Positions 5,915-14,590 of a DNA stretch of 32,000 bases are shown one piece after another. Location of the stretch: contig JBGQBN010000009.1 in the NCBI GenBank assembly GCA_041494805.1, forward strand, positions 1 through 32,000, written 5' to 3'. The notes beneath the pieces were generated by a model that saw only the letters and a list, made by a program, of their open reading frames with translations, was not told the origin of the DNA and did not search any database. Within the stretch, counting starts at the first letter, position 1; every line of letters begins with the position of its first letter. Position numbers and translations under genes: made by a program. This DNA is from Terriglobia bacterium. Its GTDB lineage: Bacteria; Acidobacteriota; Terriglobia; Terriglobales; Acidobacteriaceae.

Positions 5915-8900
5915 ATGAGCAGCCTGCAGCAACTTTCAGCCCGCAGTACCAACGGCCTCAGACGTCTGATTATCGCCGCCATGCTCCTGCTCCTGCCCTG
6001 TCTTGTTGTAGGGCAAAGCTTCCGCGGCTCGATTCGGGGAAAGGTGGTCGACCCGGCCGGCAGCCTGATTGCCCGCGCGAAGGTCACGGCGAAGAGCAGC
6101 GAGACCGGGCTCGTCCGCACAACCGTCACTGGTAGCGACGGCGCTTACGTTCTGGCCGAATTGCCCGCAGGCCTGTACACCGTAATTGCCGAAGCACCCA
6201 GCCTGTCACCAACCGCACAAAATGTTGTCGTCAATGTGGGCCTGGACACCACAGCGGACTTCGACCTGACCAAAGTGGAAAAAAGGCTGGAGCAGATCAC
6301 CGTGACTGGCGCCGCTCCGCTCGTGGAGGCCACGCGTGACGTGCTGGGCGAGGTCGTCGACCAGAGACTGGTAAGCCAACTGCCGCTGAATGGCCGCGAT
6401 TTTGGCAAACTGGTCGCCCTCGTGCCCGGCGCCACGGTTGAGCCTTCGGGAGTGGCCGGAACCCAGTTCGGCTTCGGACAGTTCAATATCAACGGGAACC
6501 GCGACCGCTCCAACAACTACAGCGTGGACGGCACCGACAACAACGATCCGTACTTCAACAACTCCGCGCTCAACCAGGTGGGCATCACCGGCGCGCCCGC
6601 GTCACTGCTGCCCATTGACGCCATCCAGGAATTCAATCTGCAGTCGCAGTTCGGCGCCGAATATGGCCGCAACACCGGCTCGGTGGTAAACATCCTGACC
6701 CGCTCCGGCACCAACCAGTTGCACGGTTCAGCCTTCGGGTTCTTCCGCAACTCCGCTCTGGACGCCCGCAACTTCTTCAATACGGAGGCGCGCAAGACCT
6801 CTTTCCAGAATAGCCAGTTCGGAGGTTCACTCGGCGGACCGATTGTGAAGGACAAGACGTTCTTCTTCGGCGCCTATGAAGGCCAGCGCGAGCGCGTGGG
6901 TTCGGACTTCATCCTGGGCGTGCCAACCCCGGCACAGCGCGCCGCGGCCCGGCAAGTGGCCTTGGCCAATGGCCTGACCGCCATCAACCCGGCATTGGAC
7001 GCAATCCTCGACTTCTACCCGGTCAGCAACACGGGTACGTTTGCCGGCGTCGTGCGGGACAAGAACGACATGGACAGCTTCATCGTCAAGGTGGACCACA
7101 ACTTCACCAATACCGAGCAACTTTCCGGCAGGTATGCTTTTGCCCGCAGTGAGCAGGTATTTCCACTAGGCTCGGCCGGCGGTTTCGGCGATGGCTCGCG
7201 CTTGCCCCAGTTCGCGCAGACTTCACCCGCCCGCGTGCAGGTAGTTTCCTTGAGCCTCCTTTCCAGCCTGAGCTCCACTCGCATCAACGAAGTGCGCTTT
7301 GGATACAGCCGGTATCGCACATCATTCAGTTCGCTGGACGCCAACTTCGATCCCTCGACTCTGGGCATTGATTTTGGCAACGGGAAGCTGGGCCTCCCGG
7401 AGATTGACTTCTCAGTCCCCGAACTGGAGAACCTGGGTGCGCAAGGATTCAGTATTCCACGTGGCCGCACCAGCCAGACCTACCAGATTTTGGATAACTT
7501 CACCTGGCTGCATGGCCGGCACACCATCAAGTTCGGCGGTGAGTATCGCCGTGCCGCCATCGAAAACTTCAATGACAACCTGGAGCGTGGCATTTTTTCC
7601 TTCAGCCCTTCCGGGCTTGATCCGGACCCTGTCGTGGACACTCTCGCCAATTTCTATCTAGGCGGACCAAATTTTGATGCTTTCATCCTCGCCCTCACCG
7701 GCGACACCAACCGCACGACCTACAACAATGGTCTGAGCTTTTTTGTTCAGGATGACATTCGCCTGCGCCCGAACTTCACCCTGAATCTTGGCCTACGCTG
7801 GGAATACTTCGGTCCTGTGAGCGAGAAGAACAATCTGCTTTCGAACCTCGCTTCCGACGGCACCCTCGCTATGGTGGGCACGCATGGTCTGGACGGCATC
7901 TACGAACGCGACCTGAACAACTTCGGCCCACGTGTGGGATTTGCCTGGAACGTGCACCCGAAGACCGTAGTGCGAGGCGCCTACGGCTTGTACTACGACT
8001 ATGTTCCGCAGCATCTGATGCTGGCGAATTTCACACCGTCGGCGGGCGTGGCCACCAACCCGATTGGTCCCCAGCCCGTGTTGCCGCTGTTTTATGACGA
8101 GAACGCGTTCAACGGCTCGGTACCGGGACCTGTTCTCTCGCCCGGCGGACCTCCATTCAACATCTTCGTAACGCCCCGCGATTTCCCCGCGCCCTACGTG
8201 CAGAACTGGAACTTCAACGTACAGCAGGAACTGACACCCGCTGCAGCGTTTGAAGTCGGTTACGTCGGCAGCAAGGGCACCCGCTTGGTGCGTCTATACG
8301 ACCAGAACCAGCCGGACGCCAACTTCAATTTCCCCAATCCCAACTTCGGCAACGTGCACACGCTCGCGCCCATCTCCTCTTCCACATACCACGCTCTGCA
8401 GACCACGTTTAAGCTACAAGGCTGGGGCGGATTCTCCGGTTTCACTTCCTACACCTGGTCGAAGTCGCTGGACGATGCTTCCGATGGCATAGATTTCACT
8501 GCCGGCGCGGCTTTCCCGCAGGACTCAACCAACTTGCAGGCCGAACACGGCGCCTCCACCTTCGACACCCGGCACCGTTTCACGGCTGCAATTAACTATC
8601 GGGTACCCACGTGGGGCGGCGTGCCCAAGCGGCTGGGGGATGGCTGGCAACTCAACTGGATTGTGACTGCGCAGAGCGGACGGCCCATCCCCATTATCAC
8701 GTCTGATGACACCACTGGACGCTTCTATTTCAATCAGCGGCCTAACGTAGTGCCAGGTGTGAATCCCGTGCTGCCAAACTGGAATCCATTCACCGGCTAT
8801 CTGAACCCGGCCGCATTCTCGCAGCCGGCGTTCGGCACATTCGGCGATTTGGGACGCAACTCGATCTACGGCCCCAACTACTGGAATTTTGACTTCTCCG

Positions 8901-9181: not shown

Positions 9182-10021
9182 CTAAGTCCCAACATCCGCT
9201 GCAATCCGCGGCAGCACCGCGCCCAGCAGCGCCACAAAATCACCCTTCACTCTCGCGGCGGTCTCCAGCACCTCTTCGTGATTGATGACCTGATCCAGAA
9301 TCCCCGCCGCCATGTTAGTCACGCAGGAAATCGCCAGAACCTTCATTCCCATGTGACGCGCGGCAATCACCTCCGCGACCGTGGACATACCCACCAGATC
9401 AGCCCCAATCGTCCGCAGATACCGGATCTCCGCCGGAGTTTCATAATTCGGCCCCAAGAGCCCCGCATAGACGCCCTGATAAACCGTCTTGCCCAGGCGG
9501 CGTGCTTCCGCAACCGCGATCTCGCGATACGGCTTCCAGTACGCCTGCGTCATATCCGGAAAGCGCGCACCCAAGCGATCATCGTTCGCTCCGACCAAAG
9601 GATTTTGTCCCTGCAAATTGATGTGGTCGGTGAGGACGACCAGCGCCCCTTGCTTGTATTCAAGGTTGATCCCGCCGGCTGCATTGGTATGCACCACAGC
9701 CCGGACGCCCATGCGCCCAAACACGCGCATCGGGAAAGCAACTTCCTGCGCCGAGTACCCTTCATAAAGATGCACCCGTCCCTGCATAGCGGCGATGGGA
9801 ACGCCGTCTGATTTGCCAATCACCATCTGCCCGGCGTGCCCAATCGCTGTGGAGTGTGGGAAGGATGGAATGTCCGCGTAGGGAATCCGCGTAGTTTCAG
9901 CAAGTTCGTCTGCAAAGGCCCCGAGTCCCGAGCCCAGGACAAGTCCAATCCGCGGGCGCAGCGCGGTGCGTGACAGCAGGAACTTCGCCGCAGATTCTGC
10001 AAGAGTGAAATCGTCGATCAT
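9182..10021 (-). CDS. punA: Purine nucleoside phosphorylase (trimeric inosine/guanosine type)
   Basis: Motifs GLVLGSGLG, HSTAIGHAG, GRVHLYEGY, VHTNAAGGIN, GPNYETPAEIR, GADLVGMSTV and SCVTNMAAG are present. The protein is 279 aa. Confidence 0.92.
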   Translation of the reverse strand: MIDDFTLAESAAKFLLSRTALRPRIGLVLGSGLGAFADELAETTRIPYADIPSFPHSTAIGHAGQMVIGKSDGVPIAAMQGRVHLYEGYSAQEVAFPMRVFGRMGVRAVVHTNAAGGINLEYKQGALVVLTDHINLQGQNPLVGANDDRLGARFPDMTQAYWKPYREIAVAEARRLGKTVYQGVYAGLLGPNYETPAEIRYLRTIGADLVGMSTVAEVIAARHMGMKVLAISCVTNMAAGILDQVINHEEVLETAARVKGDFVALLGAVLPRIAADVGT

Positions 10022-10023
10022 TT

Positions 10024-10104
10024 AAGCTCTTAGCTCTTGGCCTTTAGCTCTTAGCTCTCCGGCCAGGGATGAGCTAAGAGCTAAAAGCTAATGGCTAAAA
10101 GCTT
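10024..10104 (-). repeat. Heptamer-array inverted repeat (about 36-bp imperfect hairpin) filling the nupC-punA intercistronic gap
   Basis: The left arm is AGCTCTT-type heptamers and the right arm is GAGCTAA-type heptamers. The core is a perfect 15-bp stem, TTTAGCTCTTAGCTC (10043-10057) with GAGCTAAGAGCTAAA (10071-10085), around a 13-nt loop. Imperfect pairing extends to 10024/10104. Confidence 0.7.
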
Positions 10105-11342
10105 CACAAAAGCATTCCCGCAATCGATGCCGACATCAAATTCGCCATCGTCCCCGCCAGCATCGCACGCACCCCCAACTTGGCCAGTTCGCCCCTCTTG
10201 TTCGGAGCCAGCGAGCCGATACCGCCGATTTCGATACCGATATTTCCCAGGTTGGCGAAACCGCACAGGGCGTAAGTGGCGATGGTGTAGGAACGCGGGT
10301 CCAGTGCCGCCTTCTGTCCTGTAAGCATGGAGAACGCCACGAACTCATTCAACACCATGCGCGTACCCAGCAGGTTGCCGATGGCCGAACAGTCCTTCCA
10401 CGGCACCCCGATCACCCAGGCCACGGGCGAGAACAAAACACCAAAGATTTTCTCAAAGCTGCTGGGAAACCAGTTCCATCCGAAGTGGGCCAGACCGTTA
10501 TGTATCCCGCCCAATAAGCCGTTGGCCAGCGCAATCAACGCCAGAAACGAGATCAGCATAGCCGCGACATTAAGAGTCAAATAGAGTCCGTCGGTCGTGC
10601 CTTTCGCCACCGCCCCCAGCAGGTTCTCGCTCTTATCTTCGCCCATCTCCTCATCGCTCATCTCCACTCGCCCCGCCGTCACCGCGTGCTCCGTCTCCGG
10701 CACGAGCATCTTGGCCACCAGAATCGTCCCCGGCGCGGTCATGATCACCGCCGTCAAAAGATGCTTGGCGTCGATGCCGAAGGCAATGTAGGCAGCCATC
10801 ACCGCACCACTGATGTGTGCCATGCCACTGGTCATGATGGTCATCAGTTCCGAACGCGTCAGTTTGGGCAGAAACGGACGAATGGTCAGCGGTGCCTCGG
10901 TGCATCCCAGGAAAATGCTGGCGGCCACGTTCATGGACTCGGCCCCGCTGGTGCCCATGAACTTCATCATCACCCGCGCCATCTGCCGGATGACCCACTG
11001 CATTACCCCATAGTGATACAGGACGGCGAAAAAGGCAGCCACAAATATGATGGTAGGCAAGACCTGGAAAGCGAGGTAGAACGGTGGGCCTTTTTTTCCT
11101 AGATCCCCAAAAAGAAACGACGAACCCGCGTAGGAGTAGCCGAGAAAGCGAGTGACCACATCACCCAGCCAGGCAAACAGCCGCCGCCCAGCCTCCACCC
11201 GCAAGACCAGAAACGCAAAGACGATCTGTAACCCCAGGCCCCAGGCAACGGTGCGCAACCGAATAGCCCGCCGGTTGGTGGAAAACAGGTAAGCCAGCGC
11301 GACCATGGTCATCAGCCCGAGAATGCCAGTAAGTCGGCTCAA
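10104..11342 (-). CDS. nupC: NupC-family concentrative nucleoside transporter
   Basis: It is a 412-aa polytopic membrane protein with an N-terminal pattern like E. coli NupC (..STNRRAIRLRTV..GLGLQ..FAFLVL). CNT C-terminal motifs are FANLGNIGI..GGIGSLAP. The start is TTG 11342, with GGAGGAG immediately upstream; the spacing is short, so the start is uncertain. Confidence 0.9.
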   Translation of the reverse strand: MSRLTGILGLMTMVALAYLFSTNRRAIRLRTVAWGLGLQIVFAFLVLRVEAGRRLFAWLGDVVTRFLGYSYAGSSFLFGDLGKKGPPFYLAFQVLPTIIFVAAFFAVLYHYGVMQWVIRQMARVMMKFMGTSGAESMNVAASIFLGCTEAPLTIRPFLPKLTRSELMTIMTSGMAHISGAVMAAYIAFGIDAKHLLTAVIMTAPGTILVAKMLVPETEHAVTAGRVEMSDEEMGEDKSENLLGAVAKGTTDGLYLTLNVAAMLISFLALIALANGLLGGIHNGLAHFGWNWFPSSFEKIFGVLFSPVAWVIGVPWKDCSAIGNLLGTRMVLNEFVAFSMLTGQKAALDPRSYTIATYALCGFANLGNIGIEIGGIGSLAPNKRGELAKLGVRAMLAGTMANLMSASIAGMLL

Positions 11343-11408
11343 GCTCCTCCGCAGGTGATTCGCAGGCGCATTCTAGCACCTCGGCCGCAGGCCCACCGGA
11401 ACCACGCT

Positions 11409-11436
11409 GAGAACTGAGAACAGGGAACTAAGAACT
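11409..11436. repeat. Tandem heptamer array GAGAACT-GAGAACA-GGGAACT-AAGAACT
   Basis: Four contiguous 7-nt units lie immediately after the adenosine deaminase stop (11442-11444), in the gap before nupC. A related array is at 14591-14618. Confidence 0.55.
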
Positions 11437-11441
11437 GCGTT

Positions 11442-12974
11442 TCAGAACTTCCGCTCGAAATTCGCAAACGAGCTTTCGAGCTTCCACTGCCCGCGGGCGC
11501 GCTCGTTTGCCTCCAGAAACTTCTCACACCCGGATGAAACCTTGGCCGCGTCGGCACGGTCGCCAGCACACGCCGCCACTGGACGAAATTGCTGCGTCTC
11601 CACCCAAAGGCTGGCGCCAGGCAAGAAACTGTGCTCCAGGCTCTGTCGCGCCATGCGCTTGACCTCGGCATAAGTCAGGCCATAGCTCTCTACGGCTCGC
11701 ACGTACTCATGGGTCATATCGGAACGCGCGACTCCCTCATCGTCCGTCGCCAGCGCCACTGGCACGCCATGAAGCTGGTAAACCGGCAGAGGATGGTCTT
11801 GCCCGCGCACGCCCAGAATCACATCGTTTGAGGTCAGGCAAATCTCCACCAGCACGTTGCGCTGCGCCATCTCCCGCAACAAGCCGAGGGGATCACGCTC
11901 GTCCATTACGGACACGCCATGCCCGATGCGCTCGGCATGCCCTCGCTCAATGGACTCGCGGATATGAAAGCGCAGTCCCTCCGGCGGTACCAATCCCATT
12001 GCCAGTTCGCCCGCATGCAGGCTGATGTGCACTCCCGGATAGACGCCGTGCAGGAAGTCAAGCATCCTCATATGCAGCTCGAAATCATGCATCGGCACGT
12101 ACCAGTCTTCGGGCATGACCAGGTTGAGCCCAACAAACCGCGGATCGGACTTTGCCAGTTCGAAGCCGGCCAGGATCTGTGCAAACACCTGCTCTCGTGG
12201 CAACCCGCGCAGCACCTGGTACAGAAAGCGGACCGTGACGCCGCAGCCGGGATCAGCTTCCGCCGAACCGCACTTGAGCGCGGAACGCATCTTCGCTTCG
12301 TCGTCATCGAGCTGCTTGCCAGTCGCCGCGATCACATCCTTCAAACCGCCCGAGAGAAGCTTGTCGCGCATCCGGCCAAAATCGTCGTCCCAACCTAGCT
12401 TTGCCCCTAGTCGTGCGGACTGCATGCCATCCGCCGTGTGCATGAGTTCAAGGTATTGCACATGATCGGCAGCCGCCCGCGCCGCGGCCTCCGCCATGGA
12501 CTCGCCCATATGGTTCAGCATCGCGGCTAGAAACTTGTCGAAGGTGGCAAAGAAGTGGTCGTGGCCAGATTCCTCCCCGCGGTTCCAGTTGCGCATGGAC
12601 CAGGCGTCGATCATGGAGTTGTAGAGAACCTGATCCTGATACGCGCAAGCCACCCACGGCTTGCTGGTATACCTTTCACAGGAAACATCGCATGGCGGAG
12701 TCAGCAGGAAAGAGGTCGTCCGGTCAACACACAAACCGCTGCCGGCGGCGAAGTCGATGAGGCTCTCCGCATAAATCGCGCCCTCCAGGTGGTTGTGCAG
12801 GTCGCCGCCCTTGGGCATGTCCCGCAAGAATGCCAGCAGAAGCAGAGGCTGCCGCCGAATCGAGTCGAAATAACGGGCCGTGCGCTGCTGTGGATCGGTA
12901 GCGGCTTGCGCTGCGGCAACCGACCCACTTACCGCTACGACAACAACAATAAGCAGACCAGCCGCTCGGCTCAC
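11442..12974 (-). CDS. Secreted adenosine deaminase, ADGF/ADA2-like long form
   Basis: It is about 510 aa. The signal peptide is ..LLIVVVVAVSGSVAAAQA-AT. Metal and catalytic motifs are GGDLHNHLEGA, HISLHAGE, GHG, and LATDDEGVARSD. The GTG at 12974 lies 5 nt after the SD AAGGAGG; the TTG at 12977 is an alternative. Confidence 0.88.
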   Translation of the reverse strand: MSRAAGLLIVVVVAVSGSVAAAQAATDPQQRTARYFDSIRRQPLLLLAFLRDMPKGGDLHNHLEGAIYAESLIDFAAGSGLCVDRTTSFLLTPPCDVSCERYTSKPWVACAYQDQVLYNSMIDAWSMRNWNRGEESGHDHFFATFDKFLAAMLNHMGESMAEAAARAAADHVQYLELMHTADGMQSARLGAKLGWDDDFGRMRDKLLSGGLKDVIAATGKQLDDDEAKMRSALKCGSAEADPGCGVTVRFLYQVLRGLPREQVFAQILAGFELAKSDPRFVGLNLVMPEDWYVPMHDFELHMRMLDFLHGVYPGVHISLHAGELAMGLVPPEGLRFHIRESIERGHAERIGHGVSVMDERDPLGLLREMAQRNVLVEICLTSNDVILGVRGQDHPLPVYQLHGVPVALATDDEGVARSDMTHEYVRAVESYGLTYAEVKRMARQSLEHSFLPGASLWVETQQFRPVAACAGDRADAAKVSSGCEKFLEANERARGQWKLESSFANFERKF

Positions 12975-13058
12975 CAAACCCTCCTTGAATTCCTGAAGAC
13001 CGGCATTTTACCTGTTCGGCAGAAATAAAGTAGCAGAACCCAGCTTGCTGATCGCGAA

Positions 13059-13082
13059 AGATCGACCGCGAGAGATCGACCG
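13059..13082. promoter_or_regulatory. Direct repeat AGATCGACCG-N4-AGATCGACCG upstream of the deaminase operon
   Basis: Identical 10-mers sit at 13059-13068 and 13073-13082, with a third GATCG at 13050-13054. They lie about 85-105 nt upstream of the deaminase start. Function is unknown. Confidence 0.25.
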
Positions 13083-13349
13083 TGGCCAGCGTGGAGAACC
13101 GCCGAGGCCCAGCTCTAGAAAGACCACAAAAGTCCCTCCCCACGCGGTTTTCGCGAGATTTTCACAGTTTGAGGGTGGGAGATTTTTCTAGCGACTGCCG
13201 CAGGGGCGCTAACGGAATCCGCAAAAAACGCCATCCGCTGCCGATCAATCGGCAACCCTTTTCGGCAAATTGCACCACTTTCAGTTCACCTGGCTGTGGA
13301 CCGGCTGCACTTGATTGATTTTACGACGGATAGAGTTCTGTGTTTCGTA

Positions 13350-13383
13350 TTGACTCTAAAAATGGAAGGAGTAAGAAAATAAT
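13350..13383 (+). promoter_or_regulatory. Candidate sigma70-like promoter for the ncRNA candidate
   Basis: TTGACT is at 13350-13355. After 16 nt comes TAAGAA (13372-13377), or after 19 nt GAAAAT (13375-13380). This sits in the only strongly AT-rich patch of the region. Confidence 0.3.
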
Positions 13384-13384
13384 C

Positions 13385-13705
13385 GTTCTTTGACAGCTTC
13401 TGAAGTTTTCCCGGTTGGTGCGGCGTCCGGGGCTCAAGCGAAGTCACCTGCAGACCGCAAGGTCATGCAGGGAAGGCGAGCAAGGGTCTATAGCAAAGCG
13501 CTGGTCGAGGCGAACAAGAAGATATGTTGAAGGCAACATAGGATCCCGAGGCGTTAAGCTGGTTTATCCGGTTGGCGGTAAGCCCGGAGCCCGAGCAACG
13601 ATCGCGCGTTGCGACCCGCAAGGGAAGCGACGAAGGCAGGTCGGCAAGGGTCTAAAGCGAGCTACTGGCCGAGACGAATGAGCTTAACACCACCTCGGGA
13701 TTCTT
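13385..13705 (+). ncRNA. Candidate structured ncRNA with two homologous modules of about 110 nt (family not recognised)
   Basis: Module 1 is about 13410-13520 and module 2 about 13567-13680. They share CCGGTTGG..CCGG(G/A)GC.C.AGC..[GCAA-capped hairpin]..GAAGGC..GCAAGGGTCTA(T/A)AGC..CTGG.CGAG.CGAA. Stems differ by compensatory changes. A 19-bp outer helix (13541-13560 with 13681-13703) encloses module 2. G.U pairs and the GNRA loops fit the + strand only. Boundaries are approximate. Confidence 0.45.
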
Positions 13706-13832
13706 ATTTGTGACGCGCGCAATCCAACCCCGCTGAGCGGCCAGGCCTCAGCGCTCCCCTGCCTCCGAGTAATTCGGGCTCTATCGGGGATGGGATGCGC
13801 GCTTCCCCATCCGCTACGTCTGGGCCTAACCC

Positions 13833-14528
13833 TCACGGTCCTTGCTGCACCCGCAGTTTCTCTCCCGTCACCAGCCGTGCTCGATAGATGGTGTTGGTCG
13901 CGGCTACCTCGGCCACAACGTCAACATTCACTTCGTAAGCGCCCCGCGGCAGGTTCTCTCCGAACGGAATCTCGAGATCAATAGTGTTCTTCTTCAGAGC
14001 AAAGTGCTGATACCCAACCGCCGTAGCTCGTCCCTTCTCGCTCACCGCCAGCACGATCACCGTCAGGTCGAAATCCTGTCCCGTCTGGTTGGAAACTTTG
14101 ACCGCACCCTCCACCCTTTTTCCCGCTACCTTGGGATCTCGGCTCCACGCAACCAGCAGTGGCGCCACCACCTGCAGATCGAGTTCCTGGTTCTGCTGCT
14201 GGGCAGGCTTGCCGCTATCGGTCACCGTCACCACAAAGTGAAACGATCCAGCTTCGCTGGGAATCCCAGCCAGCAAGCCGTCTTCACTCAGTGCGATACC
14301 CCGCGGTAACGAACCTCCAGTGAATTGCCATTTCAAAGGACTGATTCCGCCCTGAGCCTCCAATTGGAAGCGATACTCTTGCCGCAGATACCCCTTGGGC
14401 AAGGACGTCGTCCGCACTGAGAGTGGCCCGCCCATCGCGGCGCCCTGCTGCGCCGGGGAGCTGAGGGAAGCCGCCAGCACGCACCACATAATGGCAAGGG
14501 TTGCGCGGCCGGCCACGTGCTTTGACAT
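13833..14528 (-). CDS. Exported protein with putative cadherin-like Ig domain
   Basis: The signal peptide is MSKHVAGRATLAIMWCVLAASLSSPAQQ. The 'putative Ig domain' pattern is YRFQLEAQGGISPLKWQFTGGSLPRGIALSEDGLLAGIPSEAGSFHFVVTVTD. The ATG at 14528 is preferred over the extension to 14570. Confidence 0.7.
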   Translation of the reverse strand: MSKHVAGRATLAIMWCVLAASLSSPAQQGAAMGGPLSVRTTSLPKGYLRQEYRFQLEAQGGISPLKWQFTGGSLPRGIALSEDGLLAGIPSEAGSFHFVVTVTDSGKPAQQQNQELDLQVVAPLLVAWSRDPKVAGKRVEGAVKVSNQTGQDFDLTVIVLAVSEKGRATAVGYQHFALKKNTIDLEIPFGENLPRGAYEVNVDVVAEVAATNTIYRARLVTGEKLRVQQGP

Positions 14529-14590
14529 GATCCCCATCGCGTGCGCTCTAGAGCCAAAGCTACAGCACAAGGTTGCCTACTCCAAAAACT

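Follow-up and report, generated by a model that had tools for sequence, protein, structure and literature searches.

Introduction

Some orphan structured non-coding RNAs of bacteria, found by comparative genomics, are very abundant, and orphan RNAs such as OLE, raiA and ROOL have repeatedly led to new biochemistry. 6S and Ms1 RNAs are abundant, stable, mostly double-stranded rods with a conserved internal loop and processed ends, and they sequester RNA polymerase. The nadA (NAD+-I) riboswitch, RF03013, also occurs in Acidobacteria. Within this phylum, the Terriglobia rank among the most abundant soil bacteria and among those hardest to work with and, to our knowledge, almost nothing is known about their regulatory RNAs. 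We analyzed a stretch of 32,000 nt (hereafter the window) from a Terriglobia bacterium of the family Acidobacteriaceae (GenBank assembly GCA_041494805.1, contig JBGQBN010000009.1, positions 1 to 32,000 of the forward strand). An earlier note on this DNA, made from its letters alone, had proposed a novel structured RNA with two homologous modules on the plus strand of a long gene-free gap (12978-13832), a proposal that was borne out. The gap holds a real gene for a structured non-coding RNA of ~300-330 bases built from two similar hairpin arms. It is also well supported that this RNA is stand-alone, independently transcribed, abundant and stable, and that it is vertically inherited in the class Terriglobia (Acidobacteriota). 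The note had named three findings that would speak against it, namely a match to a known RNA family, a lack of homologues with covariation and a lack of a plus-strand transcript; none of the three occurred.

Compared with the systems above, the RNA resembles 6S and Ms1 in being stand-alone, abundant and rod-like with a conserved internal loop, and in having ends that appear to be processed, but it consists of two tandem homologous rods where 6S has one, and its central loop is smaller (6x4 nt in an arm, or ~9x9 nt should the 2-bp helix 4 not form). With the tandem riboswitches for glycine (RF00504) and nadA it shares two homologous domains, invariant loops and covarying, length-variable stems. 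Unlike them, it matches no model, has neither a co-oriented downstream gene nor an expression platform, sits in a variable gene context and has larger domains of ~150 nt each. Similarly to raiA, OLE, ROOL, GOLLD, Acido-1 and Acido-Lenti-1, it is lineage-restricted, strongly covarying, stand-alone and of the kind whose function is unknown or partly known; it differs from them as a tandem duplication of one rod-like module, and it matches none of their Rfam models. CsrB and RsmY/Z likewise carry repeated binding modules, which are predicted here, in one abundant trans-acting RNA, yet theirs are many short GGA hairpin loops, whereas this RNA has two large modules and, by our reading of the consensus, no repeated GGA loops. 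The RNA is thus a new family with an unusual tandem-duplicated architecture, within the known kind of lineage-restricted, stand-alone structured bacterial RNAs.

Homologues are widespread in Terriglobia

The adenosine deaminase-like gene that flanks the gap has relatives at 70-78% identity in Terriglobales metagenome assemblies. Upstream of the deaminase, on the opposite strand, the same element was present in 4 of the 5 lineages fetched and was far better conserved than its flanks. We then scanned a genome collection with an exact 32-nt pattern common to both modules and all orthologues, and a metagenome collection with another pattern, chosen independently and drawn from the arms' 5' halves. 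Both patterns demand exact conserved motifs in at least one arm, so the sample is biased toward close relatives, and all counts of loci, copies and neighbours given here are based on the matches listed from the two scans. At least 120 loci matched in the genome collection, among which nhmmer delimited 111 full-length copies of 327-404 nt with scores of 157-389 bits (most 283-389; four insertion-bearing copies scored lower). The metagenome collection also gave at least 120 loci; all 120 listed were confirmed by nhmmer, 78 of them at full length. In total, more than 190 unique copies were collected. Essentially all of the genome loci listed are labelled Terriglobia, Terriglobales, Acidobacteriaceae, Candidatus Sulfotelmatobacter or Korobacteraceae, and the single locus labelled Verrucomicrobiia sits at a contig end.

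Within the loci examined, the gene is usually single-copy and its conservation looks vertical. Extra partial 3' copies were observed at L063:7658-7856 (model positions 136-336), L066:2819-2877 (278-335) and L234:10874-10928 (281-335), the first two of which share their locus with a full copy. Two metagenome-assembled genomes (MAGs) have copies on two contigs each (L018 with L084, L040 with L076).

A covarying structure read from the plus strand

We aligned 106 full-length copies, all unique (alignment A3; columns 79% identical on average), and folded them with RNAalifold, which returned 102 base pairs forming two long irregular hairpins. Pairing was canonical in 98.1% of cells, compared with 37-45% when the 3' partner was slid by 1-3 columns. 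Both sides had changed in 39/102 pairs (12-21 in the slid controls), and double changes were found in 557 cells (64-120 in the slid controls). None of 500 shuffles equalled any observed measure of pairing or covariation. In a mutual-information scan of 184 unique sequences, all top pairs fell inside the predicted helices and no tertiary pairs emerged outside them; isosteric exchanges of G.A for C-G or U-A prolong the helices through nominal internal loops.

The strand assignment of the earlier note held as well. The segment 13385-13715 folds with a minimum free energy (MFE) z-score of -5.42 on the plus strand versus -1.48 on the minus strand, and the share of predicted pairs that are canonical drops from 98.1% to 77.4% when the minus strand is read. 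Since 20 of the predicted pairs are predominantly G.U, the RNA is read from the plus strand.

The gap lies between two minus-strand genes and no open reading frame survives through it: indel lengths in the two variable hairpins do not keep to multiples of three and spread over all three classes modulo 3, which excludes coding and with it a small-protein reading. Conservation among homologues sets in at TCGTTCTTTGAC and ends after CTCTTAWTTTT, with divergent flanks on both sides, and these limits define the predicted primary transcript (Table 1). ARAGORN found no tRNA or transfer-messenger RNA (tmRNA) in the window; tmRNA does occur in two of the homologous loci (L041, L162), as a separate gene or RNA and not as this one.

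Two homologous arms with an invariant core

The consensus arms are ~60% identical, with 95 identical positions over 148 and 165 nt, and align with a score of 95 versus 33 +/- 8 for shuffles. Judged by this alignment, arm 1 and arm 2 are homologous. Within the window, a repeat search recovered a 44-nt direct repeat at 73% identity as well as both halves of the helix that encloses module 2, in line with the two modules described in the earlier note. Each arm has a basal helix and a second helix, CCGGUUGG/CUGGYCGAG. Its core of short helices and internal loops is invariant, and its tip, capped by a GNRA loop, is variable. The helix CCGGUUGG/CUGGYCGAG holds four invariant tandem G.U pairs that are never G-C or A-U in the alignment. 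In both arms the invariant loop and helix nucleotides are the same, and the motifs reported as common to the two modules are confirmed. Constraint is strongest on the internal loops UCCGG(G)/UAUA and CCGGA/CUAAA and on the G.U-rich helix, and the tips are free to vary. The loops UCCGGG of arm 1 and CCCGGA of arm 2 are perfectly complementary over 6 nt, a pairing that yields no covariation signal because both loops are invariant.

Compensatory changes are found along both arms. In helix 1, GUUGAAGG pairs with the 5' leader UCUUUGAC, and the adjoining helix 2 covaries strongly (pair 19/161: CG 51, GC 34, UA 15). Further up arm 1, compensation is seen at pair 35/145, and helices 7 and 8 covary along their whole length. 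Arm 2 shows the same at pairs 189/358 (CG 61, UA 44), 215/329 (GC 95, AU 10) and 201-204/341-344. The module-2 enclosing helix (13540-13551/13693-13704 and 13553-13559/13682-13688), proposed from the single sequence, carries many compensatory changes, and the two GCAA-capped hairpins (helices 7, 8, 12 and 13) proved to be among the strongly covarying parts.

Only parts of the earlier secondary-structure model needed correction. It had opened each module with a local first hairpin, CCCGG..CCGGG and TCCGG..CCGGA respectively. These show no compensatory change; a G to A substitution (3 and 10 sequences) breaks the local pair and restores the long-range pair with CUGGYCGAG (35/145 and 215/329). 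The 7-bp hairpin placed between the modules (13523-13540) is specific to the window, being paired in 47.8% of cells across homologues, and its 5' half pairs with the leader instead. An alternative pairing of GACC with GGGUC was pairable in 77%, without covariation and not above shuffles.

The apical stem of arm 1 varies in sequence and length with its pairing maintained, and it tolerates insertions of 20 to 580 nt. Insertions in the tip of arm 2 were found in L041, L112, L058 and L072. Taking both tips together, several MAGs have inserts of 20-90 nt, and a Korobacteraceae MAG has one of ~580 nt. This last MAG holds a divergent version of ~1 kb (L072:3044-4040, minus strand; Candidatus Korobacteraceae MAG, JBEKQR010000114.1), in which the arm 1 tip carries a GC-rich, highly structured insert of ~580 nt (MFE -319 kcal/mol) and the arm 2 tip ~90 extra nt. 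The large insert gave no significant match in Rfam, the best being Rhodo-rpoB at 25.9 bits, below its threshold.

One gene has a single arm. In the MAG Terriglobia SRVP_7 (JAIQFC01, contig JAIQFC010000014.1; L113:7105-7310, minus strand), the same upstream boxes and promoter precede a complete arm 1, which is followed directly by CGGAACUCUUUAUUUUUU. What is missing is precisely arm 2; the gene has kept its 3' tail and U-run, and the He_PIG/deaminase context is as in the window. This gene has arm 1 only, hence the arms can exist alone.

Putative promoter, upstream boxes and terminator

The earlier note had pointed to a TTGACT-containing AT-rich patch just upstream of the RNA. This hexamer is conserved, although a simple sigma-70 consensus scan calls no promoter there. 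The family consensus of the putative -10 element is TAAAAC, and the 106 homologues conserve both hexamers along with much of the spacer; the scan misses the site because the -10 element lacks T at position 6. From this arrangement, transcription would start near 13383. At the other end, the U-rich tail together with the conserved basal helix of arm 2 (12 bp) would act as a terminator. A simple terminator scan made no call, since the "loop" of this putative terminator is the whole of arm 2 (~140 nt).

Conserved DNA reaches ~250 nt 5' of the RNA and travels with the gene. A distal box, GATTTTCACA, is conserved irrespective of the neighbouring gene and lies ~130 nt beyond a block of proximal boxes. 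The proximal block also reads TGCACCAAATTCCGGTCAC..CCTGTGGAC..CTGCACTCGATTGAAAA and in the single-arm locus is found at 7330-7400 on the minus strand. No consensus RNA structure was found in the proximal boxes on either strand (alifold energies of -0.6 and -0.9 kcal/mol), so the upstream boxes are conserved at the DNA level. We rejected the upstream block as part of a longer RNA on account of this lack of structure and of the finding that none of the RNA-derived fragments reaches farther 5' than model position 17. A sigma-54 or CRP-type reading was also considered by inspection, but spacing and key dinucleotides do not seem to fit. From their pattern of conservation, the boxes are probably binding sites for a regulator of this RNA.

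Chimeric contigs point to an abundant RNA with possibly trimmed ends

Five IMG/VR contigs matched the first pattern, always with a partial copy at the contig end joined to unrelated sequence (L138-L142: 3300037849_000016, 3300022716_000048, 3300022716_000406, 3300016698_000069 and 3300016700_000503). The contigs L138, L139 and L140 encode RNA-dependent RNA polymerases (RdRPs) and picorna-, dicistro-, tombus- or sobemo-like capsid proteins; L141 has a single large open reading frame without a Pfam match. RNA-virus assemblies derive from metatranscriptomes, and because L138-L140 encode RNA-virus proteins their fusions are metatranscriptome chimeras. In about 15 short contigs of the metagenome collection, too, pieces of the RNA are joined to other RNAs. 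Rfam identified the partner as bacterial tmRNA in L162 (JGI contig Ga0316037_102721), eukaryotic signal recognition particle (SRP) RNA and MISL RNA in L144 (Ga0247541_100192) and eukaryotic large-subunit (LSU) rRNA in L147 (Ga0222734_1008719). In 6/6 contigs with a readable partner strand (L138-L140, L144, L147 and L162), the RNA and its partner have the same orientation, that is, the RNA runs in sense to tmRNA, SRP RNA, LSU rRNA and plus-strand RNA-virus genomes, and this is the transcription of the plus strand that the proposal called for. Such chimeras are typical of very abundant RNAs, and we infer from them that the RNA is highly expressed. The L138-L140 fusions arose in assembly or by template switching, and the viral genome termini there are not viral sequence. 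Curators should know that fragments of this RNA are mis-assembled onto RNA-virus contigs of IMG/VR and, in public metagenome collections, onto rRNA, tmRNA and SRP RNA contigs.

The partial copies at the ends of IMG/VR contigs, and the extra partial copies in a few genomes, would also fit a feature of mobile elements, be it the attachment site of a phage, a repeat or the end of a transposon. We give this explanation next to no credence: an attachment site of a phage or integrative element is ruled out for L138-L140, which are chimeric RNA-virus contigs with RdRP and capsid genes, no integrase was found in the open reading frames examined, and the gene is usually single-copy with vertical-looking conservation.

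The junctions in these contigs recur. The 3' junction ...CACCACCTCGG is found in L236, L226, L162, L215, L149 and L188 and also forms the contig end of L142, so that CACCACCUCGG, at window position 13698, is the 3' boundary at six junctions and one contig end. In 13/41 partial copies, the 5' boundary clusters at model positions 22-34 (~13399-13411). The junctions are suggestive, and only suggestive, of a paired 5' leader and a 3' tail being trimmed to give a mature RNA of ~300 nt. Several fragments end at model positions 148-160, the end of arm 1, and the RNA is possibly cleaved between the arms.

A precursor cut into two hairpin small RNAs, one from each arm and each acting singly, for instance by base pairing with mRNA, would leave such fragments. 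RNA-derived contigs with arm 1 only exist (L225 and L229, model ~22-160), L139 and L141 end at 153-160, covariation in the leader-linker helices 1 and 2 is what a processing stem would show, and the single-arm gene fits the scheme. We nevertheless regard it as distinctly improbable: there is no clear class of arm-2-only fragments starting near model position 160, the arms are mostly base-paired and offer little conserved single strand for targets, and the junctions may be artefacts of reverse transcription or assembly.

Genomic context and coordinates of the features

The features of the locus are listed in Table 1. The deaminase operon of the window is nearby in 23/128 loci, on the other strand from the RNA. 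The downstream gene is convergent in 79/102 loci. Neighbour families vary: the largest, He_PIG, accounts for 19 loci, and no neighbour is common to all.

Table 1. Coordinates in the window of the RNA gene, its parts and its neighbours
Feature	Position	Strand	Remarks
Adenosine deaminase-like gene, CNT nucleoside transporter and purine nucleoside phosphorylase (PNP)	9182-12977	minus	operon
Distal DNA box GATTTTCACA	13157-13166		~220 nt 5' of where the RNA starts; identity of 80% or more in 105 upstream regions
Proximal DNA boxes TGCACC..GTCAC..CTGTGGAC..CTGCACTYGATTGAWWW	13270-13322		conserved in 105 loci
Putative promoter	13350-13377	plus	TTGACT 13350-13355, 16-nt spacer, TAAGAA 13372-13377; preceded by a T-run
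Predicted primary transcript of the RNA gene	13383-13711	plus	from conservation limits
Arm 1, long irregular hairpin, helices 1-8	13387-13533	plus	RNAalifold, confirmed by pair counts
Suggested mature RNA, ~300 nt	13399-13698	plus	from junctions in RNA-derived chimeric contigs
Invariant internal loop UCCGGG, arm 1	13426-13431	plus	invariant in the alignment; 186/192 unique sequences
Variable apical hairpin of arm 1	13447-13472	plus	GCAA cap at 13457-13460; helices 7 and 8
Linker between the arms, 6 nt	13534-13539	plus	unpaired in the consensus fold
Arm 2 (homologue of arm 1), helices 9-13, long irregular hairpin	13540-13704	plus	
Invariant internal loop CCCGGA, arm 2	13583-13588	plus	invariant in the alignment; 3 exceptions in 192 unique sequences
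Variable apical hairpin of arm 2	13607-13632	plus	GCAA cap at 13618-13621; helices 12 and 13 covary
U-rich tail TTATTTG (family consensus TAATTTTT)	13705-13711	plus	directly 3' of the arm 2 basal helix; conserved in 106 homologues
He_PIG-domain gene	13833-14570	minus	far side of the gap, convergent to the RNA

In the window and in the 23 loci with the operon nearby, the element lies 400-700 nt upstream of the deaminase operon, which is where one would expect a riboswitch or other cis-acting leader belonging to a gene next to it, for instance in the minus-strand 5' region of the deaminase/transporter/PNP operon. This reading is highly improbable. The structure works only on the plus strand, ~80% of loci have no such operon nearby, and the RNA has its own putative promoter and U-tail. 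A riboswitch or leader of the purine-nucleoside operon is ruled out by the strand test and the variable context and, more generally, the RNA is not a riboswitch or leader because its neighbours vary and its downstream gene is usually convergent.

Some further observations concern the flanks. A 21-nt inverted repeat (13712-13732 with 13785-13805, 81% complementary) lies between the 3' end of the RNA and the stop codon of the He_PIG gene; it is not conserved in aligned orthologous loci and may be the terminator of that convergent gene. A tandem 14-nt repeat (GATCGCGAAAGATC GACCGCGAGAGATC) is located at 13050-13077 in the 5' region of the adenosine deaminase-like gene. The adenosine deaminase-like protein itself (11442-12977, minus strand; 510 aa) has a hydrophobic N-terminus with an apparent signal sequence, and it is common in Terriglobales, with 8000 matches at E<=1e-30. 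This suggests that the deaminase, CNT transporter and PNP operon may serve extracytoplasmic nucleoside salvage.

The RNA matches no known family

We searched Rfam 15 (4227 covariance models) at the gathering threshold and, for the 1-kb gap and each arm alone, at E<=10. At the gathering score there was no match in the 32-kb window and none overlapping the RNA in 18 homologous loci, which agrees with the earlier note. At E<=10, the 1-kb segment and the single arms gave only short chance hairpin matches of at most 17 bits. Matches to group II intron models D1-D4 (11.9 and 13.6 bits; E = 0.86 and 0.4) were treated as chance. The Acido-1 (RF01686), Acido-Lenti-1 (RF01687) and nadA models, which represent RNAs from the same phylum, did not match either. 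The literature searches that were possible returned no description of such an RNA in Acidobacteria or Terriglobia, and none of the results matched for 6S RNA in Acidobacteria.

Possible functions of the two arms

We tentatively favor the reading, plausible though short of probable, that the arms are autonomous binding sites for the same cellular partner, probably a protein, and that the RNA is a scaffold or decoy. The RNA would act in trans, with one binding module present in each arm and able to function there independently. A conserved cellular partner, most likely a protein, would recognise the invariant core, made of the UCCGG(G)/UAUA and CCGGA/CUAAA loops and the G.U-rich helix, and the RNA would hold or sequester this partner as two copies or as a dimer, much as 6S, Ms1 or Csr-type RNAs do. 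The 5' leader would pair with the inter-arm linker through helices 1 and 2, and leader and 3' tail would be trimmed to leave ~300 nt. The case for two autonomous binding modules is built on the homology of the arms, the invariant nucleotides that they share, the fixed G.U pairs, the single-arm gene and the insertion-tolerant tips.

The most concrete version of the decoy idea is a 6S-like mimic of open promoter DNA, in which each arm binds RNA polymerase holoenzyme and the RNA is functionally a 6S or Ms1 in duplicate. Its abundance and stability fit this idea, each arm is a ~150-nt rod with a central loop, and both ends appear trimmed, as in 6S precursors. On our reading, the 3' strand of the loop (UAUAGC or UAAAGC) also resembles the RNA's own -10 element, TAAAAC. 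In the only membership test available, however, neither RF00013 nor RF01685 (6S-Flavo) matched even at E<=10 in single-arm searches of 158-177 nt. The loop is smaller than the canonical 6S bubble and we know of no 6S RNA that occurs as a tandem duplicate. We regard this version as decidedly unlikely.

Alternatively, the RNA may work without a dedicated protein, either as a trans-acting tandem ligand sensor or as a self-assembling ornate RNA whose arms dock through UCCGGG/CCCGGA loop-loop pairing or GNRA contacts. Its conservation is aptamer-like, with invariant loops flanked by covarying stems of variable length, and tandem homologous domains are familiar from the glycine and nadA riboswitches. 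The complementarity of the invariant loops would suit docking, and the pairs adjoining both GNRA loops keep pyrimidines on their 5' side. Against this stand the missing expression platform and co-oriented downstream gene, the loop-loop pairing without covariation, and the existence of a single-arm gene, because of which docking between the arms is not obligatory. We consider an RNA-only function unlikely, if still worth weighing.

Several points count against the scaffold or decoy that we favor. No conserved neighbouring gene points to a partner. The invariant loops equally fit a small-molecule pocket or RNA-RNA tertiary contacts, and the UCCGGG/CCCGGA complementarity would favor a folded RNA-only architecture. 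Part of the apparent invariance is ascertainment by exact-motif patterns, and such scans reach no distant homologues outside Terriglobia. Abundance is read from chimeric assemblies, and the RNA ends are assembly junctions, not ends mapped by rapid amplification of cDNA ends.

It is also possible, if on balance doubtful, that the RNA is an undescribed housekeeping-type class, specific to a group that ranks among the most abundant soil bacteria, with a function that has no counterpart among known bacterial RNAs. It could then be a duplicated sensor or scaffold with invariant CCGG loops and tandem G.U helices as a new recognition module, or an RNA-only assembly, and its expression would be high enough for it to contaminate rRNA, tmRNA and RNA-virus assemblies.

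As a class-wide, strongly structured and evidently abundant RNA that is absent from Rfam, it joins a short list of orphan bacterial RNAs. A covariance model of it would improve the annotation of thousands of soil MAGs and metatranscriptomes, and the RNA offers a concrete target for pull-downs, structural work and genetics in Terriglobia.

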